A stretch of DNA of 64,000 nt from contig DATGGK010000038.1 of the NCBI GenBank assembly GCA_035308565.1, forward strand, positions 19,023 to 83,022, in the 5' to 3' direction. Of the stretch, positions 2,733 to 52,709 are shown piece by piece. Within the stretch, counting starts at the first letter, position 1. Every line of letters starts with the position of its first letter. The notes below the pieces were generated by a model, which saw only the letters and a list, made by a program, of their open reading frames with translations, was not told the origin of the DNA and did not search any database. The position numbers were made by a program, and so were the translations under genes. The stretch comes from Planctomycetota bacterium (GTDB lineage: Bacteria; Planctomycetota; SZUA-567; H5-PLA8).

Positions 2733-3824
2733 TCAGATCATATCGACATTTATTGTGCGGCCCGTTTCTTCCTTCAGCCGTTTCACGAAGTCCTCTCTTT
2801 CAACGGACTTACCATACGCTTCTTCCGGAGCGACCTTGTCGCTCTTCACCAATTCCACAAGTGAATCGTTGAGCGATACCATGCCCAATTTGCGCCCAAT
2901 CGACATCTGTGACGGAATTTGGTAGGTCTTCCCATCGCGAATCAACGACGACATTGCACTTGTGATTACCAATACTTCTAAAGCCGCGATACGTCCGCCC
3001 GTCTTTTTCTTCAGCAAATTCTGTGATACGACGCCCTTCAGCGATGTGCTCAGCATCGTGCGAATCTGCTGCTGCCGATCCGACGGGAATTGATCGATCA
3101 GCCGGTCCACGGTGCTCGCCGCCGTCGTCGTGTGCAGCGTTCCAAACACAAGATGCCCCGTCTCCGCCGTTTCGATTGCGATTTCAATCGTCTCCAAATC
3201 GCGCATTTCACCGATCAGCACGATGTCCGGCGATTCGCGCAGCGCCGCGCGCAGCGCGCGCTTGAAACTGGTTGTGTGCGCGTGAACCTCGCGCTGGTTG
3301 ACCAGCGCCATTTTGTTGGGATGCACAAATTCGATCGGATCTTCGATGGTGATGATGTGGCATTTGCGCTGGCGGTTGATGTAATCGACCATCGCGCACA
3401 ACGTCGTCGATTTTCCCGATCCCGTCGGGCCGGTCACGACGATGAGCCCTTTCTGCAATTTGCAGAAATCGATGATCGACTTGGGCAGCCCCAAATCTTC
3501 AGTCGTGACGATCTTGGTCGGAATCAAGCGGAACACGCCGCCCATGCCCAGCCGGTTGCGAAAGACATTGCAGCGAAATCGGCCGCAACCTGCCAGTTCG
3601 TACGCAAAATCGGTATCGTTCGTCTCCTTGAATTCATCGCGGTTGCGCTGCGGCATGATTTCGCTCAAGACCATCTCGGCCTCTTCCGCCGACACCTCGC
3701 CGAATTCCTCCAATTGCGCGATGTCGCCCGAAATCTTGAAGCACGGTTTGACGCCCACCGAGATCATCAAATCCGACGCCCCGCGTTCCAGCATGAGTTG
3801 AAAGAGAATATCGATCTGAGCCAT
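2733..3824 (-). CDS. pilT: Type IV pilus twitching-motility ATPase PilT
   Basis: 363 aa. Walker A GPTGSGKSTT, Walker B/Asp box DIVLIGEMRD, PilT-type motifs HLVFGTLHTT and VSQNLL. ATG at 3824. Confidence 0.93.
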   Translation of the reverse strand: MAQIDILFQLMLERGASDLMISVGVKPCFKISGDIAQLEEFGEVSAEEAEMVLSEIMPQRNRDEFKETNDTDFAYELAGCGRFRCNVFRNRLGMGGVFRLIPTKIVTTEDLGLPKSIIDFCKLQKGLIVVTGPTGSGKSTTLCAMVDYINRQRKCHIITIEDPIEFVHPNKMALVNQREVHAHTTSFKRALRAALRESPDIVLIGEMRDLETIEIAIETAETGHLVFGTLHTTTAASTVDRLIDQFPSDRQQQIRTMLSTSLKGVVSQNLLKKKTGGRIAALEVLVITSAMSSLIRDGKTYQIPSQMSIGRKLGMVSLNDSLVELVKSDKVAPEEAYGKSVEREDFVKRLKEETGRTINVDMI

Positions 3825-4398: not shown

Positions 4399-5487
4399 AT
4401 GCCCACCTCCCTCCACCTCTCCACAGCCCGCTCCTGGCGCGGCGGCGAGAATCAGATTCACTTGCTCGTTCGCGGCCTGCTCACGAGTTGCGAGCGCGCG
4501 GTGGTCGTTGCGCCGCCTGGATCGCCGCTGCTGGCGCGGTGTGTGCGCGACAAAATCGAGTCACACCCCATTCACGTGCGCGCGGAGTGGGATATTTATG
4601 GCGCGTGGAAACTCTCGCGGCTGCTGCGAAAAGTGCGGCCGGATATTCTGCATCTGCATGACGGACACGCCGTGTTGCCGGGGAAAATGGCCGCGCGCAT
4701 GGCGGGGCTGAAAAACTTGAAGCTCGTCGCGCACCGCCGCACGGTTTTTAAATTGAAGAGCAAAAAAAAGTACGGCGGGCGCATCGATCGCGTTATCGCT
4801 ATCAGCCGAGCGGTAAAGGATCAATTGGCCGCGGCAGGAATTCCTGACGAGAAAATTCGCGTCGTGTACAGCGGCGTCGAATTTCCGGCACTGTTGGCGG
4901 CGGATGCGCCAGAAGTGCGGGCGCTGCGCGAGAAGCACGCGATTCCCGAAGCTGCATTCGTGCTCGCGCACGCGGCGGCGCTTACGCGGGAGAAACGACA
5001 GCGGGATATGATCGCTGCCATAGCGCAAGCGTCAGGCACCAAAGAGCTTCATTTGATCATCGCAGGCAGTGGTGAATTGCGTTCAGAACTGGAAGCATTC
5101 GCCGACACGGTTGCGCCGAAGCGCGTTCATTTTCTCGATTTTCTGAACGATCTCCGTCCGCTCTGGTCCATGTCTTCGCTCGCGATTTACGCGAGCGAAG
5201 CCGAAGGCCTCTGCACCGCGCTCATCGAAGCGCAGGGCGCCGGCCTTCCCGCCATCGTGTCGCGCGCAGGCGGAATGGTTGAAGTGGTTGAAGATAATGA
5301 AACGGGTGTTATCTTTAATGTCGGCGATACAGATGCGTTGAGCCGTGCGATCCTCTCTCTGCATGACGATCCCGCGCGCCGGTTGCGCATGGGCGAGAAA
5401 GCCCGTGTGCGGGCGCGTGCCTTGTTTTCAGCGGAGGCGATGGTTGAAGGCGTGGCGGCAGTCTATCGTGAATTGACGGAAGAATAG
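4399..5487 (+). CDS. Glycosyltransferase, GT4 (group 1) family
   Basis: 362 aa. The C-terminal half carries the GT4 signature (YASEAEGLCTALIEAQGAGLPAIVSRAGGMVEVVEDNETGVIF). ATG start. Confidence 0.85.
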   Translation: MPTSLHLSTARSWRGGENQIHLLVRGLLTSCERAVVVAPPGSPLLARCVRDKIESHPIHVRAEWDIYGAWKLSRLLRKVRPDILHLHDGHAVLPGKMAARMAGLKNLKLVAHRRTVFKLKSKKKYGGRIDRVIAISRAVKDQLAAAGIPDEKIRVVYSGVEFPALLAADAPEVRALREKHAIPEAAFVLAHAAALTREKRQRDMIAAIAQASGTKELHLIIAGSGELRSELEAFADTVAPKRVHFLDFLNDLRPLWSMSSLAIYASEAEGLCTALIEAQGAGLPAIVSRAGGMVEVVEDNETGVIFNVGDTDALSRAILSLHDDPARRLRMGEKARVRARALFSAEAMVEGVAAVYRELTEE

Positions 5488-5555
5488 TGCTGGGTGGGGC
5501 AGGCATTCCTGCCCGGCAGACAAAGAATGTCCGCCCCACCGGAGGAATTTTCGAA

Positions 5556-6653
5556 GTGAGCGACGGCAGTCCACGCATTTTGATTGTTCGATTGTCTGCA
5601 TTTGGCGACTGCCTGCATACGATTCCTTCGTTGGTTGCGCTGCGGCGCAGATTCCCCTCCGCGCACATCGGCTGGGCCATCGAAAAAGCGTCTCACGCGG
5701 TGCTCGAAGGCCATCCGATGGTGGACAAGTTCCACATTTTTCCAAGGCACGCATTCAAACTCGGCAGCACAAAATTGATGGATTCGATGCGTGACTTGAG
5801 CGCGTTTCGGCGCGAATTGGCCGCGGAAAAATACGAAATCGCGATCGACTTTCAAGGACTGACCAAAAGCGGCCTGGTCTCGTGGTGGTCGCGCGCGCCG
5901 CGGCGCATTGGGTTCAAAGGCGAAGACAGCCGCGAATTCAACATGGTCTTCGCCAACGAGCGCATCCGCCCGCCGGAAGAAGCCGTGCACGTCGTCGAGC
6001 GAAATCTCGCGCTGCTCAAGCCGCTCAACATTGAGTTGCCCGAAAAACCCAACAAGCCAGAATGGGTCATGCCCAATTATTCAAAAGAAGTCGAGGAGAT
6101 GCGCCCATTCCTCAAGAACTGCGGCCTGCTGGACGCAGCGGGCAACGTGAAGAAATTCGGCATCGTCAATCCCGGCGCGACGTGGTTTACGAAGCGCTAT
6201 CCGCCGGAGAAATTCGGCGAAGTGGCAAAAGGAATGGTGGAGCGGCTTCAGTTTCCCGTGATCGTGACCTGGGCTGGCGACGAGGAACTCGCGTCAGCGC
6301 AGACGATCGTAGACATCGCCGGCGGCCCATGGAAGAACGCGTTCCTTGCGCCAAAGACGAATTTGCGCGAGCTTGCGGCGCTCACGCAACAGACCGTGCT
6401 TTTCGTTGGCAACGACACCGGGCCATTGCATTTGGCGGTCGCGCTGAATGTGCGCACGGTGGCGATTTTCGGCGCGACCGATCCGCTGCGCAACGGCGCG
6501 TACGGCAGCGGGCATCGCGTGCAGACCGGCGGCGTGGATTGCCATCCCTGCTGGAAAACGACCTGCGAGCGGCAGGACCGGGCCTGTTTGATCTGGGTGA
6601 AACCGGAGGACGTGCTGACGAGCTGCAAACATATTTTGGATCGGATGGATTGA
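5556..6653 (+). CDS. Glycosyltransferase family 9 (heptosyltransferase-like, LPS core)
   Basis: ILIVRLSAFGDCLHTIPSLVALRRRFP near the N-terminus and GNDTGPLHLAVAL near the C-terminus are GT9 hallmarks. GTG 5556 follows GGAGGA by 9 nt. The alternative GTG 5487 overlaps the upstream stop (TAGTG) and adds 23 non-conserved residues. Confidence 0.8.
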   Translation: MSDGSPRILIVRLSAFGDCLHTIPSLVALRRRFPSAHIGWAIEKASHAVLEGHPMVDKFHIFPRHAFKLGSTKLMDSMRDLSAFRRELAAEKYEIAIDFQGLTKSGLVSWWSRAPRRIGFKGEDSREFNMVFANERIRPPEEAVHVVERNLALLKPLNIELPEKPNKPEWVMPNYSKEVEEMRPFLKNCGLLDAAGNVKKFGIVNPGATWFTKRYPPEKFGEVAKGMVERLQFPVIVTWAGDEELASAQTIVDIAGGPWKNAFLAPKTNLRELAALTQQTVLFVGNDTGPLHLAVALNVRTVAIFGATDPLRNGAYGSGHRVQTGGVDCHPCWKTTCERQDRACLIWVKPEDVLTSCKHILDRMD

Positions 6654-6667
6654 CGGCGGGTTTCAGA

Positions 6668-7633
6668 TTATTTTTTCCGCGCCATCATCCACGCCAAAAT
6701 CCCCGGCGTCTTCGACACAAAAAAAGCCACTTGCGCGGCGGTCGCCAGATCCGCTCCGCCGCTCAGCCGCGCCACACGTTCGAACACAAACGCAAACGCC
6801 GCCTGCCCCACGCCGATCGCGCCGAACGAGGCGAACGAGCAGACGAAATTCGCGATCAGCAGCGCGGCGAGGAACAAGCTCGCATCAAAACCGCTTTCTC
6901 CGCGCATTCCCAAACCCGACGCGAGCACGTACCCCGACGCGCTGCTGAGCGTGTGAACCCCCAGCGACATCAGCCAGCCTTCCAGCAGAAAAATCGGTGC
7001 CCCGCGAAACGCCTGCATTGATGAATATGCGCGCTCAACAGTGTGACCAAACGGCAGCTTCTTCAGGATCCAACTCAGCGGTCCCCAATTGTGCAAGCGC
7101 CGCGAAAAAAGCATCAGCGAACCGATCACCAGCCCCGCGCACACCGCCAGCAATCCAATCAAATATGGCCGCAGTGCGCCCTCCGACCAGAGAGATCCGA
7201 AACGCCAAGCCACCGCCGCTAGCGTCAACGTCAGCAACCCAAGCAGTCCCAGCAGACGATCGACTACCAGCACGCTCACCGCTTCGGTGCGCCGCCCAAG
7301 CGGAATTTGCTGCGCCAGATACCACGCCTTGATCGCGTCTCCGCCCACCGACGTGATCGAGACCGCGTCGAAAAACGCGCCCAGAAATGTCAGCTTTACG
7401 ATTGTCCAGAAACTTGGCGCCGGCCCATGCGCTCGCAGCAGCCGCTGCGTGCGCCAGGCGCTGACGATCAACTGCGCCGTCAATAGCCCCAGCGTCCCAA
7501 GCACGATGGCCGGGCTCAAGCTCAATTGCTTCAGCCGGCCAAAATCAATCTTGCCGCTGGCCAGCACATAGCCCACCAGCCCCGCCGCGACGGCGAGCTT
7601 CAAAAACAGGATCAGCCAATTCTTGAGTTTCAA
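6668..7633 (-). CDS. Flippase-like / lysyl-PG-synthase-TM-domain (UPF0104) integral membrane protein
   Basis: 321 aa and polytopic. N-terminus KLKNWLILFLKLAVAAGLVGYVLASGKIDF and multiple hydrophobic helices. TTG start at 7633 is the only in-frame start nearby. Confidence 0.7.
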   Translation of the reverse strand: MKLKNWLILFLKLAVAAGLVGYVLASGKIDFGRLKQLSLSPAIVLGTLGLLTAQLIVSAWRTQRLLRAHGPAPSFWTIVKLTFLGAFFDAVSITSVGGDAIKAWYLAQQIPLGRRTEAVSVLVVDRLLGLLGLLTLTLAAVAWRFGSLWSEGALRPYLIGLLAVCAGLVIGSLMLFSRRLHNWGPLSWILKKLPFGHTVERAYSSMQAFRGAPIFLLEGWLMSLGVHTLSSASGYVLASGLGMRGESGFDASLFLAALLIANFVCSFASFGAIGVGQAAFAFVFERVARLSGGADLATAAQVAFFVSKTPGILAWMMARKK

Positions 7634-7839: not shown

Positions 7840-10800
7840 TTAAAATTGCCCCGCGCCAGGCGTTGTCACGGTCGTCGCATTCCCTTTCCCCATTACCGGC
7901 ATCGCCGGATCGCCGAAGATCTGTTCCGTCCGGCTCAGATCGCCGTAGAAACTCCCGCCCTGCGAATACGCCCACTGCTGCGTCTTCATCAGCGCATCGC
8001 CCCACCGCCCGCCCGCACTCGCATTTTGCAATAGGCGGCTCATGAACGCGACGGCATACTCCGATTGCATATACGTCGATGTTCCGATCGACGCCGAGAT
8101 GCCGCCTTGCGGCTGCGTCAGTGCTTGTATCGCGATGCTGCGGTAACCCGTTTCGTTCTTCGCCATCCAATTGCCCGTGCACGTCGCTTGCAGGAATACA
8201 GCGTTGCCCGTCAGATTCTGCACGGTGTCGGCGGTGCTGTCGGTCTCCAAAATGCGCGGATCGTTCTTGCCCAGGCGCACCGCGTTTCCGTGTCCGACGT
8301 AGAACAAAATATCCGCGCCGCCGTTGGCCGCCTGCGTCAGCGCCGCGGTCACGTCCGGCGAACTTTGCGCAGTGACGCCGAGGTAATTGCGCTGCCACGC
8401 CAGCTCCGGATTGGCCGCCGCAATCGAATCCGCCTCCGCCGCGAAATCGCCGGCGATCGGATCGGCTTCATCGGCCACTGCGTGCACGCGCGCGCCGGTA
8501 GTCATGCCTTTGTTCGACAAAATGCGCGATACCGCGACGGACAATTCGCTGGGCGTATTCACCGGCAATCGCCCGACGACCACTTCCGGATAACCGCGGC
8601 CCAAATCGCCGAACATCGAATCGCTCGTCGCCTGCGACCAGAACGTCGTCGAGACCAGGAATGTCGGGCAAAGCGGATCGACGTTCAACCCGCTGTAATC
8701 AAGGTAGTCGTAGGTCGTGCGCCCCAACAGCAGCAAATATTTCGGCCGCACGGCGCGCACCGCGTTTTGAATTCCGTTCGGACCGTAGCGCCCGTAATTG
8801 TAGTAATCGAAAATCTGCTCCTGATCGGCGAACGACCCGCGCAAGCCTTCCTTCGAACGCTGCGCCAGCAGCGCTTGCGCGCCCGCGCTGAACTGGCTCG
8901 GCCCTATTGCCAGATACGTGAACGCCGCAAGCGGCTTCACCGCCCGCTTGCTCACCGCGATCGGTTTGTTTTCCATCCCGGCGGGCACAATCAGGAACTG
9001 GCCCGTCCCGCCGCTGGGCGCATTGAAGCGCAACGCAAACGTGCCGTCGTTCTGCGCCTGCGTTTCGTAAGGGATCAACGTCGCGCGGTCCGGGAAGCGC
9101 GCATCCACAACCCACGCGTCCGCGCTCGGCAGATGCTGCGCTTCAAAAAGCTGCGACGCGCCGCTCGGATTGTAAATCTCCAGCGGCGCCGCGCCGTTCA
9201 GCGCTTTTGTGTAGCTCGCCGTCATCGAATGCAGCAGCGCGATTTGCGTCGCGACGCCGTCAAGCTGCGGCGTCACCAATTCGATCGTGTTCGCGCCGTC
9301 CACCAAAATTCCCGGCGCGAGTTGGAACGCAAGCTGCACCATCGTGCCGCCGCCGCTCCACACCGCTTGCCCCGCGGGCTGGCCGTTAATGAACGCTTGC
9401 AGCGCGTGGTCGTTCGCAGTCCCGCTGGCTTGCGTCAAGCTCCACAGATTCACCGTCAGCGACGCTGGCCCGCCGCTGGCGTTGGGCGTGTTGAGCGTAA
9501 AGCTCTGCGTCGTCCCGCCGCTTAAATATTGATTCGAGAACCACGGCGCATAGTCGTACGGCCGCAGGTTGTCGAAATCGAAATACACGTCGTGGTAGCT
9601 CACCGTCGCCATCGCCGGCGAGGTCGTGTTCACGCTCTGCGCGCTCGCAAACAAGCCTTGCGCATGCGCGATTTGTCCCGCCGAAGTCGCCGCGTTCGTG
9701 CGGCGCAGGAACAGCGCGTCCTTGTTCGTGTAATCGTCAGCGTAGCCTTGGCCGTAGACAATCAGCCCGCTGGGCGAAAGCGCCAACGCGTTCAACGCGC
9801 GCCCTTCGCGCTGAATCGAGACATGCCCCGCATCGAATCCCGCCGGCAACGCGCTCGACGGAATCAGCAGCACGCCCGGCGTGTCGTACACTACTTTCAC
9901 TCCCGCGAAACTGCCGCCGCGCGCAGGCGCACTCGAGAACCAGCGCACGCCCGCGGATAAATTCGACGCGGGCGCGGGTGTCGGCGCGGGTGCCAAGGAG
10001 CGGTACCCCGCTCCTTGCTGTTGCGCGCGCGGATCATCTCCCAACGCGAGTAGTCCATCGTATTGCGTCGGCGTCAGCGCTCGCACCGACGCAGACATCG
10101 CAAGCTGTCCGCTCGCATCGACGAAAAGTCCCGCCGCGCGCAGCCGCTCCGCCGTAGAACGGAGCTCCCACTCCGTTCGATTTTCCGTCGCGCCAAAATT
10201 CTGCGTTGCGTCGGCTTGAACGGAGCGGGAGCTCCGTTCTACTTTCGCGAACTCGGCGCTCAACTCTTTGCCGCGCGCGTTCGCGCCAGCGAGCGCCACG
10301 CTTTCAAGCGCCGCATGCAACCCATCGCCACTCACCACACCGTTCTCATCCACGGCCACTGGCCCGGCGAGTGTAGAATGTGTCTCCGTAAATCCGCGAA
10401 TGCTCACGCTCTCCAATTTGTAGTCGTAAATGCCCGGCGCCGCCCAATCGTAGAAACAATACGCCTTCAAATCCGGATTCGTAATGCGTCCCGCGATCAG
10501 CGTGGAATTCGCCCGCGTCCACGCATCGGCTAATTTTGAATCTTGAATTTTGAATTTTGAATTACGTCGATAGACGTTGAATCCCGCGTTCTGGAATTCC
10601 GATACAGAATTCCACGTCACCAGCACTCCGCCGCCTTCCGCGCGCGCGGCGAAGGCTTCGAGCGTGACCGGCGTGACGTTGCTCGCGGTTGTGCGGACGA
10701 CCAGCGTGTCCGCCGGACTGCCCGCGCTCGGCGCGGATGCAAGATCGCTGCCGTTGAATTTGTACACAACCGCCCAGCCGCTCTGCAATCCTATTACCGT

Positions 10801-13800
10801 GGCGAAGCCCGAGGTCATTACACTGCTTCCGGTCGCGCCGGCGATGATCGGAATATCCGCGCCGCCGTTGGGTGCGGTGCCCGCATACGCGCCCGGCCCG
10901 ACGCCCAGCGACAAAACTGATGTGCCGCCCAGGGTCACAGTGCCGCCCGCGGCCACGTTGAGGAATTGCTTGTTTATCGTACCGGCGTTGACCGTCACGA
11001 TGGCCTTGAGCTTCCCGTCGCTGCTGAAGTCGATGTTTCCCGTGGGGGAAAGATTCATGCTTTCATCAGCCGCCATCGGCGTGGTCACAATGCTGGTTGT
11101 GCCCGGCCACACATTTGTAACGTTCAACTTCAGAGAACCCGTGACCGTTCCCGACCCGCGCAGGTCACCGCTGAGGGACTGCCCATTGCCATCAAGCGTT
11201 CCCGCGGCGGAGAGCGTTATGGCGGGCGCCGAGCCCAGCACGATGGGCGCACCAAGTCTCAAAGTGCCGCCCGCAACCGACATTTTCGTGCCGTCGGACA
11301 GTCCTCCCGTCGAGCCTCCGAGGAACAGAGTGCCTCCCGTTGTGCCGCCCGCGTTGAGCGTGATTGTACGCAACGTGCCGCCGTCGCTGAGCGCGCCGAG
11401 TGCGAGCGTGCCAATGCCGGTGCCGCTGTTGGCCACGTTGATTGTCGGATTGCCGTTAATCGTCGTCGCGCCAAATGTGAGGCTGTACAATGTGTTGCTC
11501 GCTGGCGTTCCGCCGGTGATGCTTAGCTTCTGCGAACCCATGGAAAGCGTGCCCAGCGTTGCAACACAAATGCCGCTGACATCGATTACCGAATTGGCGT
11601 TGACCGCTACGTTGTTGACCAGGTTGTCAAGCGACACGATCTCCACAGCGTTTACGCCGCAATTATTCGTGTCGCGCACTTGCGAAATGGTGAGCGTGCT
11701 GCCAGTCAAGTTGTCGAACAGCGCGTAATTGGCCGCCGGTATCGTCGCTGTCGTCGTTGCAGTCGTCTGAACGTATCTGGCGAACGGCGCGCCATTGCCG
11801 ATGGTGTTGAAATAATACGTCGTCGCGCCCACCGTCACATGCCCCTGCCGCCCGCCGCCGTCGGATTGCACGTACACGTACACGCGGTAATTCGCGTATG
11901 GAATGTTCGTGATCGTGATGGTGTTGGTCGTGTTGCCCGCGTTTGCGTTCGTGTCGAGGTACGAATTCATCAACTGCGCGTCCTGATTGGCCTGCGCCAC
12001 GCCGTAGACGCTGTAACTGACCGGCGCGCCGCTGAACGTCAGCGTGGTCGAAATAGCCGAGCCGCTGCTGTCGGTGAGCGCCACATTCGTTCCGGCGATG
12101 GTCTGGATGTTGTTCCAATTCGCAATCGGCACCACGCCCGCTACGCCGGTGACGTTTTCGATTTCCGTGGTGCGCCCCGCAGCAAAATTAATTCCAATGC
12201 ATCCCGCGATTGTGCCGCTGGCCAACTGCAGCGTGCTTCCGTTCAGATTGATCTGCCCGCTGCCCAGCGCCGTCTGCGTGCGCGCGGAAACCACGCCCGC
12301 ATTCAGCGTCGAACCGCCATTGAACGAATTGTTCGCGTTCAGGATCAGCGTTCCGGCGCCGTTCTTCGTCAACGTCCCGGTGCCGCTGATCGCGCCGGTG
12401 GTCGTGTTGCTGCCAACAATGTTGTAAATCAGCGCGCCGTTGTCGGTGATGCTGCCGATGATCGAACCGTCCACGGTGCCGTCGCCGATTTGCAGCGTGC
12501 CGGCGTTGACCGTCGTGCCGCCCGTGTACGTATTCGCCGCACTCAAGATCAATTTCCCCGGCGTCACGTTTGTGTCGCCCAGCGTCAAGCGCCCCACGCC
12601 GCCGTTTCCGATCGGATTGGCGTACGTCACTGTCTGTCCATTCGTATCAATGGCCGCTCCGCCCACGCCAATGGTGAAGGTGCGCCCGGATACGTCCATG
12701 TTGCTCGCGCCCGTTGCATAACGCAGCGTCCCGCCGCTGAACGACAGCGGCGCTACCGAGCCGGCCGCCGTCGAGCCGAGATGCGCATTGTCGCCGATGA
12801 TCAGCGTGCCGCCGTTGAGTGTTGTCGCGCCCGTATAAGAATTCGCGCTCTGCAATGTCACCGTGCCCGAGCCGCTCAGTTGCAGCCCCGTTGATCCGCT
12901 GATCCCAATCACGCCGCTGGCGTTGCTGAAGGTGTACGCGACGCCGCCAAGCGTGTTGTTGAAATTCACCAGAATCGGACGCACACCCGCAGCCTGAATT
13001 GAAATGTTGCTGTTGGTCACGTTGCCCGCGCCGCCCAGCATCGCGTCCTGAAACGTCACAAGACTCAAGTTGTTGTCCGCAAACTTCGCCGGCGCCGCGG
13101 TGGTCGTGTTGTACCAATTGGTCGAGGCCGTATCCCACAAGCTGTTGGTCGCGCCGGTCCAGGTCAGACTCGACGCGCCGCTGGACACCGTCAGGTCGAT
13201 TTCGTTGCCCACTTGCGAGAAGAAATACGACTTGCCGGCCAGCGGCGTGTTGCCCACGGTGAAACTGCTGCCCGCGTCGAAATTGAACAGCGTTCCTGTA
13301 AACGTGATCAGCTTGTACGTGCCCACGCCGAGAGCGCCGTTGCCGCCAGCGTTCGCGTTGTCGTTCAAATTAATCACCACGCTGCCGCTGCCGACCGTCG
13401 GCAGAACTACGTCGCCATTGACTGCGACGACGTCGCCATTACTGCCGGCCGCGGGAAGTCCCGTTCCGGGCGTTCCGAAGTCGAAATCGAGAATCGCGCC
13501 GGCGCCCAGCGTCAGCGTGCCGGTGGTAAGCGTGCCGATGCCGCCGCTGTTGTTCGCGCCCGGATTGACGCCCGGCGCCAGATGCCCGTTCGCTCCGCCG
13601 TTTCCCGCGTTAATGCTTGTCGCGCCGCCCAGCGTGCCGGTTCCCGACAGCGTCGGATTGCCTATGGCATTGACGCCGCCTGCCGTCACCGCACCCGACG
13701 ACGGCGCGCCAATAATGGAGCCAGTGACAACGAGCGTGCCCGTGTTCACGGTCGTCGCGCCGCTGTAGGTATTGGCGCCGCTGAGCGTCAACGAGCCCGT

Positions 13801-16800
13801 GCCGCCGGTGAGGATCGAACCGGTTCCGGAAATGACGCCGGAGAAATTTGACGACAAATTATCCAAGCTGCCGATGGTCAGCGCGTTTGCGCCCAGATTC
13901 ACGCTGCCGCCATTGGCCGCGGGCAGGAGTTGGCTGATGGTTTGGCTGGCGCCAAGGTTGAACACCGCACCCGCGGCCACGCTCACCTGCGTGGCAACGC
14001 CAAGCGCCGTTGAACTGTTCGAGTTCAAGATTCCGCCGTTGACAACGGCTTTTGTCCCCGTGGACAATGCGGCGGAGGACGCCGCCAGCGTCAGTGTTCC
14101 GCTTCCCGTCAAAGTGATCGTCCGCACCACGCCTCCGTCGTTCAACGCGCCCAGGGCGAGGATGCCGGCGCCCGAGCCGTTGTTGGCCACATTGAAGGTG
14201 GGATTGCCGGAAAAAGTCGCCGCGCCGAGATTGAGCCCATAACTTAGGTTTGCAGCCGTGGCGCCACCGGTGACAGCCAGCGTGTGGCTGCCCATGCTGA
14301 GCAGTCCCAGCGTGCCGCCGTCTGTGCCGGTCACGTCGATGGTCGAATTGGCGTTGATCACGACGTTGTTGCTTAGATCCTCCGACTCCGAAATGATTTG
14401 AATCCCACAGATTCCGTTGTTGTTCGAAGTTGCCTCGCGCGCCTGAACGATCGTCAGCGTGGGGCCGCTGAGATCGTCGAAGAGCGCATAGTTGGCCGCG
14501 GCGGACGCGGCCGCCGTAGTCGCGGTCGCCTGGATATATGACGCGAACGGGTTGATGTTGGTGGTGAAATAGTAGGTCGTCGAACCGACGGTGACGTGCC
14601 CGATGCGGCCGTTGCCGTCGGAGCCGACGTACACGATCGCGCGGAAACGCGCGTAGGGAATGTTGGCGACCGTCACTGTGATCGTCGAGGTGGCGTTGTT
14701 ATCGATGTACGAATTCATCAACTGCGCGTCCTGGTTGGTCTGCGACGCGCCGTAGACGCTGTAGGTGTTCGGCGAGCCTGTGAACGTCACGTTCGCCGGA
14801 GATGCCGCGCCGTTGCCATCCACCAAGGCCACATTGGCGCCGGTGATGCCTGGAACGTTGTTCCAGTTTTGCATCGGCACCACGCCGGCGGTGCCGGTGA
14901 CGTTGTCGATGTCCCCCACGTTGGCGCGGCCCGTCGAAAAGTGGATTCCGATCATTGCGTTCTCGCTGGCGGCCAGTTGCAGCGTCCCGCCGTTGAGATC
15001 CACCGTGCTCGTGCTCAGCGCGCCAGTCGTCTTGACCGATACCGTTCCCGCATTCACGTTCGTCACGCCGGTATAAGTGTTCGTGTTCGCGAAATTCAAA
15101 ACGCCAGGCCCGTCCTTGCTCACCGAGCCGCTCCCGCTGATCACGCCGCCATTTGCGTTGAGGGAGGCGACGTTGTAAATGAGCGCCGCGTTGTCCGCGA
15201 TATTTCCAGGAACCGTGCCGTCGATCGTTCCGTCGCCCAACTGCAGCGTTCCCGCGGCGATCGTCGAGCCGCCCGTGTAGCTGTTGGCTCCCGTGAGCAC
15301 CAGAATTCCAGGCGTGGCGTTCGAATCGTTGAGCGTCAAAGCTCCTGCACCGTTGGCGCCGATCCCCGATCCATACGTAATCGTCTGGCCATTTGGATCG
15401 AACGTCGCGCCGCCGGCGTTGATCGTCACCACGCGCCCCGAAATATCCGTATTGGTCGCGCTGGCCACGTAGCTCAGCGTCCCGCCGTTGAATGTAAGCG
15501 GCGCAATTGTGCCGGACATCGAGCCGAGCGCCGCGTTGTCCTTGATCTGCAGAATGCCGGCGTTGAGCTGCGTGGCGCCGATGTACGTATTGGGACTCTG
15601 CAAAATCACCGTGCCGCTGCCGTTGAGCACGAAACTGGTCGTTCCGGCGATTCCAATTACTCCGCTGGCGTTGCTGAACGTATACGGCACTGCCGCATTC
15701 GTGAAGATCACCGACAACGGGGACACGCCGCCGCTTTGAATTGTAATCGCATTATTCGTCACGTTAGCCGCGCCGGGCAGTTTCACGTCCTGAAAACTCA
15801 CGTGGCTCAGATTGTCCACGTAGTTCGTCGCCGCGCTGGCCGTCGTGCTGTACCAATTGACCGCGGACGTGTTCCACAACCCATTCGTCTGGCCTGTCCA
15901 CGCCATATCCTGCACGCCGCTGGTAATCGTCAGGTCGATCTCGTTTCCGATCGTCGTGAAAATGTAGCTCTTGCCGGCCAACGGCGTCGTACCGATCACG
16001 ATGCTGCCCGTCGGACTGAAATTGAACGCCTGTCCCGTAAACGAGAAGAGCTTGTACGTGCCTGTGCCGATGCTGCCGTTTCCACCGGCTGCGGCGTTGT
16101 CAGTGAGGTTAAGGGTGACGGTGCCCGTCGATGGGAAAGTCAAATCGCCCGCAATCGCAACCAAATCGTTAAAGCTTCCCGTCGAAGGTATGCCCGTTCC
16201 CGGCGTGCCGAAATCGAAATCCAGCACACTGTTCGCATTCAAACTCAACGGGCCCGTATTCAGCATTCCGATCGCGCCGCTGTTGCCGGTCGTGTTCACG
16301 CCCGGCGCGAGGTGCCCGGCCGCGCCGCCGTTGGCGCTGCTGATCGTCACCGCGCCGCTGACGTTCGCCGCGCCGGCCAGTGTGGGCGTGCCGCTCGCGG
16401 CTGCCCCTCCCACTGTCACCGCTCCGGACGTTGGCGTGCCCGTAATCGAACCGGTCACCATCAGGATGCCGCTGTTCACGGTAGTCGGGCCGCTGTAGGT
16501 ATTCGCGGCGCTCAGTGTCAAGGTATTCGTTCCCGCTTTGACCAGCCCTCCGGTGCCGGAGATCACGCCCGCGAAATCGGACGCGAGATTGTCCGTGCTG
16601 CCGATCGTCAGTGTGCTGTTCGCCTGCAAAATGACGTTGCCCGCGTTGGCCGACGGCGTCAGCGAACTGATCGTTTGACTGGCCCCAACGCCGAATGTCG
16701 CCCCGAGCGCCACCGTCACGCGCGCGGTCGTTCCGAGCGCCGTCGCGTTGTTCGAATTGAGCGTCCCGCCGGTCGCGTTCACCACCGGCCCCGCAACAAA

Positions 16801-19800
16801 GCCCGCTGCCGGCTGCGTCAACGTCACCGCGCCCGTGCCGCTCAGCGTAATGATGCGGGAGACGCCGCCGTCGCTTAAGCTCCCCAGATTGAGCGTCGCC
16901 AATCCGCCGCCGTTGTTCATCACGATGAACGTCGGATCGCCCGAGAACGTCGCCGCGCCCAGCGTCAGTGTGTACGGGAGTCCCGCGCCCAGGCTCCCTC
17001 CCGTCGCCGTCAGCGTCTGCGCTCCCATCGCGAGCGCGCCTGCGCTGCCCACGCTGCCAAAGCTGACGCCGGTTACGTCGATCGTGGAATTCTGCGTGAC
17101 CGAGACGTTGTTCGGCAAGGCCATGCCGATCGAAACAACCTCGATTCCGCAGATGCCGTTGTTTCCAGAATCGTGCTGCTGTGTGATCGTGACCGTGGAG
17201 CCGCTCAAATTGTCGAAAAGCACGTAATTTGCCGCGGCTGCGGCGCCCAGCGTCGTCGCCGTGCCTTGCGTGTATCCGGCGAACGCGGCTGCGTTGCCAA
17301 CCGTTGAAAAATAATACGTCGTCGCTCCGATGCTGACGTGTCCCGTGCGCCCAGCAGTGTCCGAATTCACGTAAACGTACACTCGGTAATTTGAGTAGGG
17401 AATACTGCTGAGCGTGATCGTGTTGACGGCCGCCAGGACGTTGGTGTCAAGATACGAATTTATCAATTGCCCGTCCTGCGATGCTTGCGGCGCACCGTAA
17501 GTGCTGTACGGATCCGTGCTGCCGCTGAACGTCAAGAGCATCGGCGAAGCGTTGCCGTTGGCATCATTCAAAGCAACGTTCGTGCCCGTCAGTGTCGCAA
17601 CATTGTTCCAGTTGCCCATCGGCACGACGCCGGCCGTGCCGGTCACATTTTCAATTTCAGTGCCGTTGCGCCCGTCCGAGAAATTGATTCCAACTTTCGC
17701 GCCGTCGCCGGCCAATTGAAGCGTGCCGCTGTTGAGCACCGCCAAGGCCGTGCCCAGCGCCGAATTGTTCCGCGCCGTAATTGTGCCGGCGTTGATGTTC
17801 GTCACGCCGCCGTACGTGTTCGTTCCGCCCAAGGTCAGTGTGCCCGCGCCGTTCTTCGTCAGGCTTCCGGTGCCGCTGATGACTTTGTTGTACGCCGCTG
17901 ATGAAGAGACGTTGAAGACCAGGGCGCTGTTGTTGACCGTGTTGCCCAGCAGCGTCGCATCCGTCGCGCCATTGCCAAGCTGCAATGTGCCGCTGGTGAC
18001 GGTCGTGTCCCCGGTGTACGTGACCGGCACTCCCAGAATCAGTGTGCCGGGCGTTGCATTCGTATCGGCCAGCGTCAACCCGCCCGGTCCGCCGTTGCCA
18101 ATCGCCGCTCCATACGTCACGGTCTGCCCGTTGGTGTCGATCGTCGCCCCGCCCAAGCTCATGGTGACCGTGCGCCCCGACACATCCGGATTCGTCGCCG
18201 CCGGCAAATAGGAAAGTGCCCCGCCATTGAAGACCAGCGGCGCAATCGTTCCGTTCGCGGCGCCGATGTCGGCGTTGTCCTTGATCTTCAACACACCCGC
18301 GTTGAGCACCGTCTGCCCTGTGTACGCATTCGGGCTTTGCAGTGTCACTGTCCCCGTTCCCGTGAGCGTAATTCCGCCCGTCCCGCCGATGCCCGCCGTC
18401 GTGGCGCTGAATGTGTACGGCACCGCCGCATTGTTGAACGTCACCGAAATCGGCGCCACTGGCGACGGAATCGAAATCGCGTTGTTGGTGACATTGGTCG
18501 CGCCGGGCAACTTCACGTCCTGGAACGTGATGATGCTCAGGTTGTCGATGTAATTGGTCGTCGTCGAATTGTCTGTGTTGAACCAGTTGGCCGCCGACGT
18601 ATTCCAGATGCTGCTCGCCGCGCCGTTCCAAGTCAGATTCGAAACGCCATTGGCAATCGTCAGATCGATTTCGTTGCCGATCAGCGAGAAGATGTAGAAC
18701 TTCCCGGCCAGCGGTGTGTTGCCAATCGTGAAACTGCTCGCGGAACTGAAATTGAATGTTTGCCCGGTGAACGTGAAAAGCTTATACGTCCCCGCGCCAA
18801 TGCTCCCGTTCCCGCCCGCATTGGCATTATCATACAAATTCACCGTGATCGTGCCCGATGTCGGCAGCGTCAAATTGCCGTTGATCGCGATGAGGTCGCC
18901 GGCATTTCCGGTCGAGGGCACGCCCGTCCCCGGCGTGCCGAGATCGAAATCCAGCGCTGCGCCCGCGCCGATCGCCATCGCGCCGGTGTTGAGCGTCCCG
19001 ATGCCGCCGGAATTGCCCGCCGTATTCACGCCCGGCGCGACATGCCCCGCCGCTCCGCCGTTGGCCGAACTTACATTCACCGCGCCGCTCACGTTGCCAT
19101 TGCCCGAGAGCGTCGGCGTTCCCGTTGCGCCAATACCCCCGACAGTCACGGCGCCGCTGATCAGCGCTGTGTCGCTCAGCACCCCACCATTAATGGTGGT
19201 CGCGCCGGAATAGGTATTGCCGGCCGAAAGAGTCAATACGCCCACACTCGTTTTGGTCAACACCCCGGTTCCGCCGATCGCACCGCCAATCGTGACCGCC
19301 CCAAAATTGTTTACCACCAACGTCCCGTTGTTGGTGATGCTGGCGCTTGCGATCGATCCATCGTGCCCGGTCGTGCCGTCGCCAAGTTGCAGAGTCCCCG
19401 CCGCAATCGTGGTCGCTCCCGAATACGTATTGGGGGCAGTAAAAATCCACAGACCGGCGTTGTTTTTATTGAGGATGACTTGCGTCGCATTGCCGTTGGC
19501 GATCACGCCGCTGACCGTGTTCGCACCCGTGTTGGTGCCGAGCAAATTGAGCGTCGCCGCCACCGGCGAATCTCCGCTGATCCCGCCGCCGAAATTCAGC
19601 AGCGAGCCGCCGTTCGGCGCGTTGTTCGTCAGCGTCAGCGTCGCGCCTTCAATTTTCAGCGGCGCATTCACCGCCTGAGTCTGCCCCGTGCCCGTATACG
19701 AGCTAAGTATCTGAATCACCCCGCCGTTGGTCATGAGCAACGCACTTCCAGCCAGCGTCAAGCCCCCGGTGTTGCCGTCGAACTTGATATTCGTTAGGTT

Positions 19801-25901: not shown

Positions 25902-28900
25902 TTACTCCTCTGTTGCGTCGCGTCCGCGAATTTCGCGAAACTGCTTGCTCAACACAATCGTTTCGATCGCCGCGCCGATGCGATACCCGTCCGCCGCCGT
26001 GCGCGCCTGCATCTCTTTCAACAGCGGCTCGTCCGACAACTGTACCCCTCGCCCGAGCGCATAGCCTAACAACTTCCGCGAAAATTGCTTCAAGAAAGCA
26101 TCGTGCCGCATTTCGAACAAATAGCCGCGCAACCCGTTAAAACCGTCAATCTCCGTACCGTCAAGCACCTTCGAGTGCGTGTCAATCGGTCGGTTGCCCA
26201 AATCCTTTTCGCGGAAGCGCCCGATCGCGTCGAAATTCTCGAGCGCAAATCCAAACGGATCGATGCGCTTGTGGCACACCGCGCAGCGCGCGTCGCTGCT
26301 GTGTTTCTCGGTGAGTTGACGCACGGTCAGCGTTTCGGCGGCTTCGTCTTCCGGCAGGCGTGGCACGTCTTTTGGCGGGCGCGGCAGTTTCTCACCGAGC
26401 AGCACTTCCGAAACCCAATTCCCGCGCAAAATAGGACTCGTCCGCGACGCGCCGGATTGCTTCGCGAGCGTCGCCGCCTGCGCGAGAATTCCGCCGCGCG
26501 AATATTTCTTCACGCCGTCCACGCGCCGCCATTCCCCGCCGCTCACGCCAGGAATTCCGTAATGCTTCGCCAGCGCTTCGTTCAAAAATGTGTAATCGCA
26601 ATCGAGAACGTTCAGCACCGATTGGTCACGCTGAACCAAGTCCGCAAAAAATCGAATCGGCTCCTCATACATATCCCCGCGCAAGCCCACAAATGTCGGA
26701 AAATGCCGCTCGCTCTTTTCGTTGAGCTCGTCGAAATCCTTGATGTGCATCCACGCGCAGCCAAATTCCTCGCCAAACCGCCGCACGCGCGCGTCCTGCA
26801 TCATGCGCCTGGTTTGCGCAACGAGCACATTCGAATCAAGCAGTTTCCTCGACGCCGCCAGCGCGCGCAATTCTGCGTCTGGCTGCGATGACCACAGAAA
26901 ATAACTGAGCCGGTTCGCCAGTTCGAACGCATTCACCGGCGCCTGTTTCGCGCCCGGCGCGGCGACTTCAGCGTGATACAAAAACGCCGGCGCAACCAAC
27001 ACGCGCGCGATCAGCAGCCGAATCGCTGCGTCATGCGCCAGTTCCTGATCGCGCAGTTTTTTGTATAGCCCGCGCAATTCGTTTTTCTCCACATCCGTCA
27101 TTGGACGCCGATACGCGCGCTCAGCAACTTCCAGCACGCTGTCCAAATGCTTCGGCTGCGTGTCGATCAGCAATTGCCTGAACGCCGCCGCGCGCTGCTT
27201 GATCGGCTCGCGCAGCGGCTCCCACACTTTCGGGTCCGCGTCCTGCGTCGAGAATTGATAAATCTGCTCGAACGCATCGACCGATGTGAGCGCATCCTGA
27301 GTGACGTAATGCAACTCGTCCCACAGTCGGTCCAGCTTCGCCTTCTGCGCGTCGTCGAGCATCAAGCGCGCGAGGTGATGATCTTCGCGATAAAAAAGCG
27401 TGAGCGTCACGACTTCATCGACCGGCACGATTTTCGTGTAACACAACGCCGCCGGAAAAAGCTGTCGATACTCGTCGTATGCCGCTTCGAACTTCTTGCG
27501 CGCCGCGCTCCCGTCGTTCACGATCACGGGCATCGCAATCGAAATCTGCCGGCTGTCGGATGTCCACGCCATCTTGGCGTCCGTCACCGTCACTTTGCTC
27601 GGAACCATCCCCGCTTTCGTCTCCGGCTTGCTCGACGACACCTGCAACTGCACGCTGCCCTCGGCCCCGCTCTCCTTATCGAGCGTTCCCGTCGTCACAA
27701 ATTCGCAGCCCGCGACAAGCTCTGCCGGAAGATGAATCTCGATCACCGCCGGCGCTTGCACGCACAGATTCGCCTCGCCAATCGCGCGCCCATTCGGATC
27801 TTTTCCGAATTGCGCGGGATCAAGCCCCCACGTTTGAGCGCCGTTCGCGGCGACCGGCGGATTCTGCGCGTTGGCATCTTTCTTAAGCCCGGCGAAGAGC
27901 GGCCCGCTTAGCGACGTCAATTGGCGGTACAATTTCGCATTCGCCGAATCTTTGTCCGCGGGCGGCACGCCAAGCAGCAGTTTCTGTACTTCGTCCGCGA
28001 GCGTGGCTTTCGTCTTCTCATCCGCCGCATTCTGCCATTTGCCCAGCAGCGATTCCGCCAGAATCGTCGTGCTCATTTCGCCGCCCTTGTCCGGCTCCGT
28101 GTAAAAATGCCACACCTCTTTATTGCCGAAGCGATCCGCGTGCGGATTTCCGGCGAGAATATCCGGCGACACATCCGCCGCCAGATTCCACACTCGCCCG
28201 CCTTCGCCGGAACTCGTGATGACAAGATTCACCGCGGTCAGTCCGCAGGCGTGATCGCTGTTGCGCGGACCGACTCGCACCGAAATCAAATCACCCGGTT
28301 GCACCGAAATTTCGAACGGGCCGGGCTTGAATTCACGCGCGTCCTGCGCGTGACCGTTCGCGAGACTTTGGCGCGTTGCGCCGCGCCTCATTTCGAGCGA
28401 CCACAGCGTCCCCGGCCCGCATGCGGAATGCGCGTGCTGTACGACGGCCTCCACTTTAACCGTCGCCGCAATCGGGCTGCGCCAGCCCACGCACGCCTGC
28501 AACTTTGGCGAGGGATGCAGCACAATTCCATGCGGCTTCGCATCGCCGGGAATGCGCACGAGCGTGTCGGATGAATTCGCGAGGATGTTCGGCGTGTCCT
28601 TCGGCCCCCAGCCCTTGATAAAATCGTATTTCGGCGTGCCGTCGATCTTTTCCGCAAAATAATTCTGAATCTTCACCGCATTCACATCGCCAACGCCCAG
28701 ATAAGCGAGCCACGCCGCAAGCGCGTCGGGATCGGCGTCGTATTTCCGCGCTAACTCCGCCACAGATTTTGAATCTTGAATTTTGAATTTTGAATCTTGA
28801 ATCCCCTCTGCCGCCGCGCGCAAACATTTCGCCGCGCCGCCAAACACACGCTCCCGCCGCGCCGCATAATCCGCGCTGATCGATCGCACATCTTTGAGCA

Positions 28901-30104
28901 GCATGTCGGGGCAACCCGGCGCAACCAGACGCGGACGTTCCCAAATCACAACATCGCCCGCGTTCCCGTCGCCGGCATCGCCTGCGACGAGGTACAGCGT
29001 CACGTCCTTTCCATCCGCGGGCGGCTGAATTTTCACGCGCACATCCTGCTTCGACGCCATCGGCGTGACCGGCTCCATCCACGCCTTCGGCCCGCCCGCC
29101 TTGCCGATGTGCCCGACGCTGGCGAATTTCCACAACGCGGATTGCCACTGCACAACTTCGGCAGTCAGCGCTGCCGCATCGTTCGGTTTAGCAGCGCGCC
29201 AATTCGCGCGCAATCCATCAAGCAACAGTGACGGCTTGTCGGACGTAAGCGCATTCATCAAGATGTCGAGATACTTTGCGCTTAGGCCGTGCTTGTGCGC
29301 GATCGCGTCAACCTCGCTCCCTTGCGGTCGCGACTCGTCGCGCAGTTCGATCGTCGCCGCGAAATATTTTTCGAGCGGCAATCTCCCGCCCCCATTCGTC
29401 TCGAAGACGATGCCCTGCAAATTGACTTTGTTCCCGCCGCTCTGATCCGAATATTCGCGATACAGCGCGCGAATTTCAGCGAGAATTTCCTCTGTCCAAT
29501 CGCGCCGCGTTGTCTTCGCCGAAAATCGAATTCCGTCCGGCAGCAGCAGTGCGTGCGTCGCGACTTCTTTTCCCGCGTCGAGGTATTTCGAAAGCAGCGT
29601 CGGCGACATCACCAGCGCTTGGCCCGTATTGGTGAATCCCTCGCCCGCCGCGCCGTCCGCCGGAAACTCTTTTCCGGGATCAAGCGAGTCCACGCCAGTC
29701 AGATCGCGAATCGTGTACTTGTATTCCGCGTTCGAAAGCCGCCGCAAGACCACCGGCCCCGGATCGCCCGCGTGTTCCAGCGCGATCGCGTCCAGCGTCT
29801 CGCGCGCCCAGTTCATCAGCCGCGACTTTTTCTCGGCGCTCGGCTGCGGCTTCTCCTTCGGCGGCATCTCGCCGTCGTTCAATTGCTCCCACACGCGCTG
29901 CAAGACTTTGGGCTGGCGTTTTATGCCGGCCAGCGTTGTGAATCGCTCCAGATCCAAGTCGCCCTTCTGCGCCTCTGTCGAGTGGCAAGTCAGGCACGAC
30001 TCTTTCAGAATCGGGCGGATGGATTTCTCAAAATCCTCCGCGCATGCCGCCGGCGCACAGATGAAGAGAGTCAACGAGAAGAGAATACAACGCGATGCAT
30101 TCAT
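25902..30104 (-). CDS. DUF1592/DUF1588/DUF1585-type protein with N-terminal planctomycete cytochrome-c-like motif
   Basis: CLTCHSTEAQKGDLDLERF near the N-terminus and CAVCHKRIDPFGFALENFDAIGRFR near the C-terminus. ATG 30104 gives the signal peptide MNASRCILFSLTLFICAPAACA and avoids overlap with the upstream gene. The track start at 30323 is over-extended. Confidence 0.85.
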   Translation of the reverse strand: MNASRCILFSLTLFICAPAACAEDFEKSIRPILKESCLTCHSTEAQKGDLDLERFTTLAGIKRQPKVLQRVWEQLNDGEMPPKEKPQPSAEKKSRLMNWARETLDAIALEHAGDPGPVVLRRLSNAEYKYTIRDLTGVDSLDPGKEFPADGAAGEGFTNTGQALVMSPTLLSKYLDAGKEVATHALLLPDGIRFSAKTTRRDWTEEILAEIRALYREYSDQSGGNKVNLQGIVFETNGGGRLPLEKYFAATIELRDESRPQGSEVDAIAHKHGLSAKYLDILMNALTSDKPSLLLDGLRANWRAAKPNDAAALTAEVVQWQSALWKFASVGHIGKAGGPKAWMEPVTPMASKQDVRVKIQPPADGKDVTLYLVAGDAGDGNAGDVVIWERPRLVAPGCPDMLLKDVRSISADYAARRERVFGGAAKCLRAAAEGIQDSKFKIQDSKSVAELARKYDADPDALAAWLAYLGVGDVNAVKIQNYFAEKIDGTPKYDFIKGWGPKDTPNILANSSDTLVRIPGDAKPHGIVLHPSPKLQACVGWRSPIAATVKVEAVVQHAHSACGPGTLWSLEMRRGATRQSLANGHAQDAREFKPGPFEISVQPGDLISVRVGPRNSDHACGLTAVNLVITSSGEGGRVWNLAADVSPDILAGNPHADRFGNKEVWHFYTEPDKGGEMSTTILAESLLGKWQNAADEKTKATLADEVQKLLLGVPPADKDSANAKLYRQLTSLSGPLFAGLKKDANAQNPPVAANGAQTWGLDPAQFGKDPNGRAIGEANLCVQAPAVIEIHLPAELVAGCEFVTTGTLDKESGAEGSVQLQVSSSKPETKAGMVPSKVTVTDAKMAWTSDSRQISIAMPVIVNDGSAARKKFEAAYDEYRQLFPAALCYTKIVPVDEVVTLTLFYREDHHLARLMLDDAQKAKLDRLWDELHYVTQDALTSVDAFEQIYQFSTQDADPKVWEPLREPIKQRAAAFRQLLIDTQPKHLDSVLEVAERAYRRPMTDVEKNELRGLYKKLRDQELAHDAAIRLLIARVLVAPAFLYHAEVAAPGAKQAPVNAFELANRLSYFLWSSQPDAELRALAASRKLLDSNVLVAQTRRMMQDARVRRFGEEFGCAWMHIKDFDELNEKSERHFPTFVGLRGDMYEEPIRFFADLVQRDQSVLNVLDCDYTFLNEALAKHYGIPGVSGGEWRRVDGVKKYSRGGILAQAATLAKQSGASRTSPILRGNWVSEVLLGEKLPRPPKDVPRLPEDEAAETLTVRQLTEKHSSDARCAVCHKRIDPFGFALENFDAIGRFREKDLGNRPIDTHSKVLDGTEIDGFNGLRGYLFEMRHDAFLKQFSRKLLGYALGRGVQLSDEPLLKEMQARTAADGYRIGAAIETIVLSKQFREIRGRDATEE
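28766..28804 (-). repeat. In-frame tandem heptamer array (aattcaa family) inside the DUF1592 gene
   Basis: Plus strand attttgaatcttgaattttgaattttgaatcttgaatcc. It encodes EGIQDSKFKIQDSKSVAE. Confidence 0.85.
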
Positions 30105-30139
30105 GAGGAAAACCGGAGCGATCTGGCGGGAGTTTCGTG

Positions 30140-30667
30140 CTAACGCCGCCATTGTTTTATGCGAGTATACACCGCGCGCGCAAAAACAACGAGCAGCGCC
30201 GCCAGCGATCCGGCGGCGATCCACATCACCGGTTGTTGCGTTTGCCACCCGCGGACAAAGACTGCAATCCCATCCTGGCAAACGGCAGCAACGTTTCCGC
30301 CGTCTTTCGAAAATTGCAGCCACACGATTTTGTGCTCGTTCTTCAAATGCGCCTTCAACACGCTGAACTCGCCTTTCGCATCCTTCGAAAACACGTCAAT
30401 GCCCGCCCCATCCGTCGCCACGCGCGCGCACTCGCTGCCATTTGCCGAGTAAGCTCGCGCATTAATCAGGTCCTCGACGGACGGCAATTGGTAGCGCGGC
30501 TCGCGCGACCCGCCCGACAAAGTCCGGTTCAGCACGCAGTCAAAATCGATGTCCGGTACGAAACGTTCGAAGTGCCATTCGTTGCGCATGACGCTCAAGC
30601 CGAGCATCGCGCCGGAAAAAATGCAGCCGAGCAGCAAAGTCGAGAGGTGAAAGGATGGAAGTTTCAT
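30140..30667 (-). CDS. Hypothetical membrane-anchored protein (TM helix at each end)
   Basis: 175 aa. N-terminal LSTLLLGCIFSGAMLGLSV and C-terminal VMWIAAGSLAALLVVFARAV hydrophobic helices. Lies 35 nt upstream of the DUF1592 gene. Confidence 0.55.
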   Translation of the reverse strand: MKLPSFHLSTLLLGCIFSGAMLGLSVMRNEWHFERFVPDIDFDCVLNRTLSGGSREPRYQLPSVEDLINARAYSANGSECARVATDGAGIDVFSKDAKGEFSVLKAHLKNEHKIVWLQFSKDGGNVAAVCQDGIAVFVRGWQTQQPVMWIAAGSLAALLVVFARAVYTRIKQWRR

Positions 30668-52699: not shown

Positions 52700-52709
52700 C
52701 AAAACCAAT

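Follow-up and report, generated by a model that had tools for sequence, protein, structure and literature searches.

The question raised by the planctomycete DNA analysed here (64,000 nucleotides (nt) of contig DATGGK010000038.1, hereafter the window) is what a bacterium would do with a single giant protein that joins adhesin-type β-strand repeats to a C-terminal cysteine peptidase of family C25. The open reading frame (ORF) occupies window positions 7840–20631 of the minus strand, on which all features of this protein given below lie, with the stop codon at 7840–7842 and an ATG at 20631. Its 12,792 nt make up 20% of the window and encode 4,263 amino acids (aa) in one frame, as an earlier note on this DNA had read it. 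We favour, with moderate confidence, the view that this protein, termed the giant in what follows, is a substrate-targeted cysteine protease most likely working outside the cytoplasmic membrane. This is suggested by the profile scores of the PATR repeats and of the C25 domain, an invariant catalytic dyad, a predicted fold resembling that of PorU, the jelly-roll modelled for an unannotated domain (X) of the repeat region, X homologues that appear to be surface proteins, and the exchange of the N-terminal region, or passenger, among relatives.

The giant was confirmed as a real 4,263-residue predicted exported protein of an uncultured planctomycete. A GAGGG motif lies 7 nt 5' of the ATG at 20631. 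The longest version of the ORF opens at a TTG at 20739, and a second in-frame TTG is found at 20682; these starts are possible but disfavoured, as they would bury the signal peptide. The N-terminus, as read from the translation, is MTRSQFDRSVGSWVVLCLCALLTAGRSAFA|ATTA, and it is predicted to be a canonical Sec-type signal peptide (aa 1–30, 20542–20631) with cleavage after AFA. It is also the sole segment of the whole protein with a mean Kyte-Doolittle hydropathy of at least 1.6 per 19 residues, in agreement with the signal peptide claimed in the earlier note. In overall composition, G, T, A, S and N together account for 56% of the residues, and there are ten cysteines.

The internal repetition of the gene and its origin in a short-read metagenome assembly could point to an artefact, with repeats collapsed, expanded or joined into a chimera. 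However, the repeated super-modules described below are only 66–67% identical in DNA, and the longest exact repeat within the gene is 27 bp, which leaves nothing for short-read assemblers to collapse and makes the long-read check proposed earlier largely needless. Moreover, contig k141_90740 of an independent assembly (ENA ERZ27279685) matches the window with 99.993% identity across 15,358 nt, and the gene called there likewise encodes a 4,263-aa product with PATR and Peptidase_C25; in the alignment of this locus (L040) with window positions 12074–27431, 1 nt differs in 15,358. Paralogues of 3,000 to >4,400 aa are also present in other genomes. An artefact is thus hardly credible and was regarded as effectively excluded. 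An exact-sequence database look-up returned no entry for the giant or for the PheA-type protein at 51533–52723, and it matched the neighbouring SDR, TIM and GH127 proteins.

The peptidase that the earlier note had placed at the extreme C-terminus was upheld by profile, by fold and by homologues. Peptidase_C25 (PF01364) matched aa 3906–4245 over profile positions 1–373 of 374, with an E-value of 3e-45 and 155.4 bits against a cut-off of 23. The domain belongs to a cassette formed by the last ~940 aa (aa 3322–4263), for which AlphaFold2 (AF2) yielded a model with a predicted local distance difference test (pLDDT) score of 78 and a predicted template modelling (pTM) score of 0.71. The modelled cassette starts with an immunoglobulin (Ig)/FN3-like β-sandwich (aa 3322–3430, 10342–10668), with strands at cassette positions 2–106 and conserved in 99 members of the family, which bears out the Ig-like stretch seen earlier. 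This is followed by a long helix and a disordered linker (aa 3431–3575, 9907–10341; pLDDT<50 at cassette positions 204–250), which ends in an RWF motif conserved in the family consensus. Next come β-sandwich domains (aa 3576–3905, 8917–9906; pLDDT about 90) that resemble the N-terminal domains of PorU according to Foldseek, NF033707 and a profile search of Protein Data Bank (PDB) sequences, and for which Pfam at permissive E-values gave only sub-threshold CBM-like or BetaGal matches. The α/β catalytic domain (aa 3906–4244, 7900–8916) and a disordered tail, PVMGKGNATTVTTPGAGQF (aa 4245–4263, 7843–7899; pLDDT<50), complete the protein. The histidine of the GHG motif (His4114, codon 8290–8292) and the cysteine of the ATC motif (Cys4151, codon 8179–8181) are invariant in an alignment of 26 cassette sequences, and they align with H211 and C244 of the gingipain RgpB as well as with the GHG and TC motifs of PorU.

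PorU, the C-terminal signal peptidase/sortase of Porphyromonas gingivalis' type IX secretion system (T9SS), proved the best match of the cassette by profile, fold and NCBIfam. In Foldseek, it was the top match (6ZA2; E 4e-22, up to 804 aligned columns), followed by the gingipain Kgp (6e-8), with clan-CD separase and SAVED-CHAT among the further matches. A profile of the family, run against PDB sequences, retrieved PorU with E 2.9e-26 and 95 bits, the alignment covering PorU residues 322–793, and RgpB with 4e-13 and 51 bits. A single-sequence phmmer search of the protease region against the same sequences had given chance matches to FMN reductases only, and the profile was needed. Finally, NF033707 (T9SS_sortase) matched the giant over profile positions 161–732 of 1095, with E 3e-34 and 117.9 bits, compared with an equivalog cut-off of 420. 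Both proteins share the GHG and TC catalytic motifs, an AD..D motif and sandwich domains ahead of the catalytic domain. By profile and predicted fold, the protease is a bona fide C25 member with a caspase-like fold, closer to PorU than to the gingipains.

On the same sequence grounds, it is not PorU itself: it scores below the NF033707 cut-off (118 vs 420 bits) and lacks the T9SS C-terminal domain (CTD) along with the C-terminal third of PorU. Unlike PorU, it is joined to a 3,300-aa passenger on its N-terminal side, carries a G-x-F tail and ends 19 aa past the C25 domain, and its family reaches at least 15 paralogues per genome, compared with a single machine component. The Ig-like motif aligned weakly with the PorU CTD (conditional E 0.036), which was treated as chance. 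The T9SS is not known outside Bacteroidota and their relatives, and none is known from the phylum that hosts the giant; within the window, neither T9SS machinery nor CTD cargo was found. As to the gingipains RgpB and Kgp (MEROPS C25), they share with the giant the Pfam family, the clan CD caspase-like fold and the aligned dyad, but they are more distant than PorU (51 bits; Foldseek 6e-8), and the giant has no match to Propeptide_C25, hemagglutinin or CTD. The catalytic domain comes last in the giant, whereas in gingipains it follows an N-terminal prodomain and stands ahead of Ig-superfamily, adhesin and CTD domains. At the position of Asp163, in the S1 pocket of RgpB, the giant's family does not have Asp, although the alignment there is uncertain.

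The passenger ahead of this cassette had been described as β-strand repeats throughout its more than 3,000 aa. Repeats were indeed found, in 13 stretches each for PATR (PF12951, E 2e-52) and TIGR02601 (E 8e-61), both PATR and Peptidase_C25 lying well above their cut-offs, but the region is not uniform: it comprises about three super-modules and four non-PATR domains of ~190 aa, which we designate X. Self-comparison revealed three ~915-aa super-modules (about 3.5 copies) in the register 445, 1350 and 2263, with 55–64% aa identity; it was run with BLAST on the protein cut into chunks, as the uncut protein gave no match. Each copy is headed by one X domain, and the four span aa 31–222 (19966–20541), 980–1167 (17131–17694), 1894–2082 (14386–14952) and 2811–3000 (11632–12201), with 46–61% mutual identity. 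The stretches that separate them contain PATR repeats and are β-helix-like, plus a cap-like element: the first spans aa 223–979 (17695–19965), with the first full super-module running from about aa 445, followed by aa 1168–1893 (14953–17130) and aa 2083–2810 (12202–14385). A last β-helix segment with the passenger cap (aa 3001–3321, 10669–11631) was assigned by its self-similarity to the other post-X segments, and its part directly before the Ig-like domain is kept in some paralogues. Of three repeat and Ig-region peptides quoted in the earlier note, two are exact, and the third reads GSLTLSGANTYSGATTVNTGTLVVTG rather than GTLTLS..., one residue having been mis-copied.

The X domain has no Pfam match, even at permissive E-values. 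An AF2 model of copy 2 (pLDDT 82), computed from an alignment with 13 homologues, is a β-jelly-roll whose best PDB folds in Foldseek, all weak, are the carbohydrate-binding modules (CBM) CBM61, CBM6, CBM35 and CBM36, together with domain III of Cry toxins. Homologues of X with 29–39% identity (P0041–P0053) are proteins of ~250 aa that consist of a signal peptide, one X and a PEP-CTERM anchor, from which it follows that X is a surface-displayed module elsewhere. The X domains probably bind glycans or other polymers, and X may represent a new domain family of surface or CBM-like type. In other family members, the equivalent passenger region contains PA14, discoidin and TIG domains, and such predicted domains fit, without proving, a ligand- or glycan-binding role of the passenger. 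PATR-containing surface proteins of bacteria of the Planctomycetota–Verrucomicrobiota–Chlamydiota group and the X-bearing PEP-CTERM proteins share with the giant the β-helical passenger or the X domain; at their C-terminus they have a barrel or a PEP-CTERM anchor, whereas the giant has a protease cassette there.

Searches with the cassette placed the giant in a wide family. About 37 close homologues with 50–67% identity were retrieved, several with PATR repeats and several named 'C25 family cysteine peptidase [Planctomycetota bacterium]'. When species-representative genomes were scanned, 38 cassette loci were obtained, nearly all from metagenome-assembled genomes (MAGs) of uncultured Planctomycetota. 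One such MAG, ELA667, has at least 15 cassette paralogues. Many paralogues are giants themselves, with one complete at 3,212 aa and several exceeding 4,200–4,400 aa, and all have the order Ig, linker, sandwich and C25 in common, while their passengers differ. Among 1.84 billion cluster representatives, the number of proteins matched by the cassette profile was 7,479 with a threshold of E≤1e-30 and 48,712 with one of E≤1e-3; in the best 150 matches, which are up to 6,272 aa long, the cassette end almost always coincides with the protein C-terminus. The unannotated P0063 (4,198 aa, ten PATR plus C25) has essentially the architecture of the giant. Together with the deposited P0002, P0017 and P0021, it resembles the giant in the cassette (50–67% identity), in the combination of PATR with C-terminal C25 and, mostly, in a G-x-F end. 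The passengers of these homologues differ from that of the giant, and the four X in ~915-aa super-modules were seen only in the latter, P0058 having one X. No other C25 or X-domain paralogue is present within the window.

Genes for giant surface proteins are common in Planctomycetota (PMC5177795). The architecture singled out in the earlier note is therefore real but was given too much weight, as homologues with PATR and C-terminal C25 had already been deposited and thousands of proteins, some as large or larger, belong to the family. By sequence, the giant, although large, is an ordinary member of this very large and uncharacterised family. One cassette homologue (L030, JANYFM010000080.1) is on a contig binned as Hyphomicrobiales, while all other close matches are from Planctomycetota; mis-binning is likely, rather than transfer.

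With respect to export, neither Pfam nor NCBIfam gave a match in the giant to an autotransporter barrel, PEP-CTERM, LPXTG, a GlyGly-CTERM-like signal or a T9SS CTD, and the 19-residue hydropathy scan found no C-terminal hydrophobic segment. The earlier statement that there is no recognisable anchor is accurate for known signals, as sought with hidden Markov models and hydropathy, but it overlooked the conserved tail of the family, G-x-F-COOH, discussed below. These results also bear on whether the giant could be an adhesin or protease of the classical autotransporter type (type V). The passengers of autotransporters typically have PATR repeats, and 13 stretches are present here, along with a weak match to the passenger repeats of fusolisin. 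The missing β-barrel translocator, sought in Pfam and NCBIfam, refutes this assignment, however, and the C-terminal 940 aa were modelled as sandwiches plus a caspase-like domain instead, in the order passenger, protease, protein end. A classical autotransporter is very improbable and was considered effectively excluded.

These elements can be assembled into the mechanism that we prefer, that of a targeted extracellular protease. The giant would undergo Sec export and then arrive at the cell surface or in the medium. The passenger would be a long β-helical stalk, grown from 3.5 old tandem duplications of the ~915-aa super-module, and this stalk, with its four CBM-like jelly-roll domains, would act as a targeting device for the PorU-like C25 peptidase, whose intact His4114/Cys4151 dyad would cleave external proteins. 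Among paralogues, the cassette would be kept and the passenger swapped, whereby each paralogue would bring the same type of protease to another target or to a hold on another surface, and paralogues with different passengers would widen the target range. We infer export past the periplasm, protease activity, ligand binding by X, and a regulatory or sorting role of the tail.

Several points weigh against a targeted protease of this kind. The giant has no barrel, T9SS CTD or known anchor with which to cross the outer membrane, and the CBM assignment of X is weak (Foldseek E about 1e-3, TM 0.3–0.5). No conserved neighbour genes beside the paralogues point to a pathway. The literature searched held nothing relevant on planctomycete C25 or PorU-like proteins, or on the cassette family. 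Furthermore, a private protease on every paralogue would also suit a self-processing role.

According to the latter explanation, the C25 cassette would not be a digestive protease but a module that acts in cis in processing or attachment. Like PorU, a sortase-type transpeptidase, or the clan-CD protease domain of MARTX/TcdB toxins, it would cut its own chain, probably in the linker between the Ig-like and sandwich domains, after which the passenger would be released or moved to a surface acceptor. Such a module would suit the closeness to PorU by profile (95 vs 51 bits), fold (4e-22 vs 6e-8) and NF033707 (E 3e-34), the conserved and invariably C-terminal cassette behind varying passengers, a cassette present separately in every one of at least 15 paralogues, and the conserved disordered linker with its RWF motif ahead of the sandwich domains. 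MARTX, TcdA and TcdB toxins have a cis-acting clan CD cysteine protease domain (C80) inside a giant secreted multi-domain protein, which provides, by analogy, a possible model for self-processing, although C80 is another family and showed no sequence or fold match here. Fold similarity, however, does not specify the reaction, and no acceptor or partner genes are conserved beside family members. PorU, moreover, is part of an attachment complex, where it processes T9SS CTD cargo in trans (PMC11285876, PMC4560394) and to which its own C-terminal CTD tethers it (PMC11285876), while the giant has no CTD and reaches 118 bits against the 420 of NF033707. Taken together, we deem a self-processing or attachment module unlikely, although it is the main rival to the targeted protease.

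The tail offers a further possibility, which would fit either of these explanations. In the giant, the conserved end of the C25 domain (GDPAM) is followed by 19 flexible residues that end in G-Q-F, and nearly all complete close homologues end in G-x-F, e.g. PGTF, AGTF, AGQF and PGNF. Within related loci, 21 of 416 ORFs of at least 200 aa have this ending, and 20 of the 21 are C25 tails. A survey of 146 family members with a recognisable C25 domain end found 48 without a tail and 86 with a tail of 9–60 aa, in which P, G, S and T are abundant and the minimum length is about 17 aa. The last residue of these 86 tails is F in 45 and E in 30, the E-tails belonging to a more distant clade, and a further sub-clade has an extra domain of ~180 aa that ends in G-(T/R/K)-F-(R/K)-K. 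At Cys+4, i.e. four residues beyond the catalytic cysteine, all 45 F-tail members have W or Y, and 28 of the 30 E-tail members have R.

A flexible tail with a clade-specific last residue could thus be a new functional signal, either a product-like plug in the S1 site of its own or a sibling molecule, which would impose latency, or a tag for sorting or retention that a PDZ-type or outer-membrane factor would read. The recurrent F and E endings, the enrichment of G-x-F among C25 tails, the minimum length and composition, and the correlated residue at Cys+4 speak for a signal. Against it, every tail type is limited to one or two clades and the tail-less relatives inside the F clade retain W or Y, so that the correlation may be purely phylogenetic; as a functional link, the co-variation was set aside as confounded by clade structure. 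In addition, AF2 left the tail of the giant undocked, with pLDDT<50, 48 relatives have no tail, and the literature searched contained no description of, or precedent for, such a C-terminal signal. We therefore hold a signalling role of the tail to be doubtful. Equally doubtful is its more specific form, in which the tail would be an undescribed functional element of non-Bacteroidota C25 peptidases: an autoinhibitory plug whose last residue reports the P1 specificity, or a tag by which giant surface proteins are sorted or retained, acting with a PorU-like, sortase-type reaction outside the T9SS.

The single gene adds little, given that relatives with PATR and C-terminal C25 are already deposited. 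The interest lies in the family, which amounts to thousands of uncharacterised proteins in which giant, interchangeable passengers precede a PorU-like clan-CD peptidase, in phyla with no known T9SS. If they are targeted extracellular proteases, they would probably be a major part of the attack on complex organic matter by these heterotrophs, which are abundant in soil and freshwater. Should the cassette instead serve self-processing or attachment, or the F/E tail latency or sorting, they would represent a new way of handling giant surface proteins, and the evolution of the PorU sortase would become more tractable through them.

The giant gene is chromosomal, and the window includes housekeeping genes for TIM, PheA and an aminotransferase. 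A promoter and terminator scan downstream of the giant gene was uninformative. Its immediate neighbours encode a flippase-like LPG_synthase_TM protein, glycosyltransferases of families GT9 and GT4, and an aldo-keto reductase, none of which is kept beside the paralogues. Directly downstream, at 4399–7633, the GT4, the GT9 (heptosyltransferase-like) and the LPG_synthase_TM-like flippase constitute a group of envelope-glycan genes. The only secretion or pilus gene near the giant, at 2733–3824 on the minus strand, encodes a type IVa pilus retraction ATPase of the PilT/PilU family (TIGR01420, 441 bits), which has a 42%-identical match (149 aa aligned) in the paralogue locus L001. A link of the flippase, GT9, GT4 and PilT genes to a PorU-like attachment to lipopolysaccharide was considered and rejected, as none of them recurs beside paralogues.

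Farther along the minus strand, positions 24574–30323 encode a 1,473-aa PSCyt1/PSD2-5/PSCyt3 protein and then a DUF1552 (HXXSHH) protein, a pair typical of planctomycetes and one of the grounds for placing the window in Planctomycetota. In locus L018, the same pair adjoins a C25 paralogue, probably by coincidence. At 39938–44812, also on the minus strand, a 1,624-aa, A/K/Q/E-rich and coiled-coil-like protein with an N-terminal transmembrane region and a weak DUF4175 match is encoded, and its gene coincides with an extreme AT skew (-0.47 to -0.60) over 40–44 kb. It adjoins genes for VWA/GATase1-like (37337–39793) and HEAT-repeat (33903–37370) proteins, and the group resembles a Bat/aerotolerance-type cluster.

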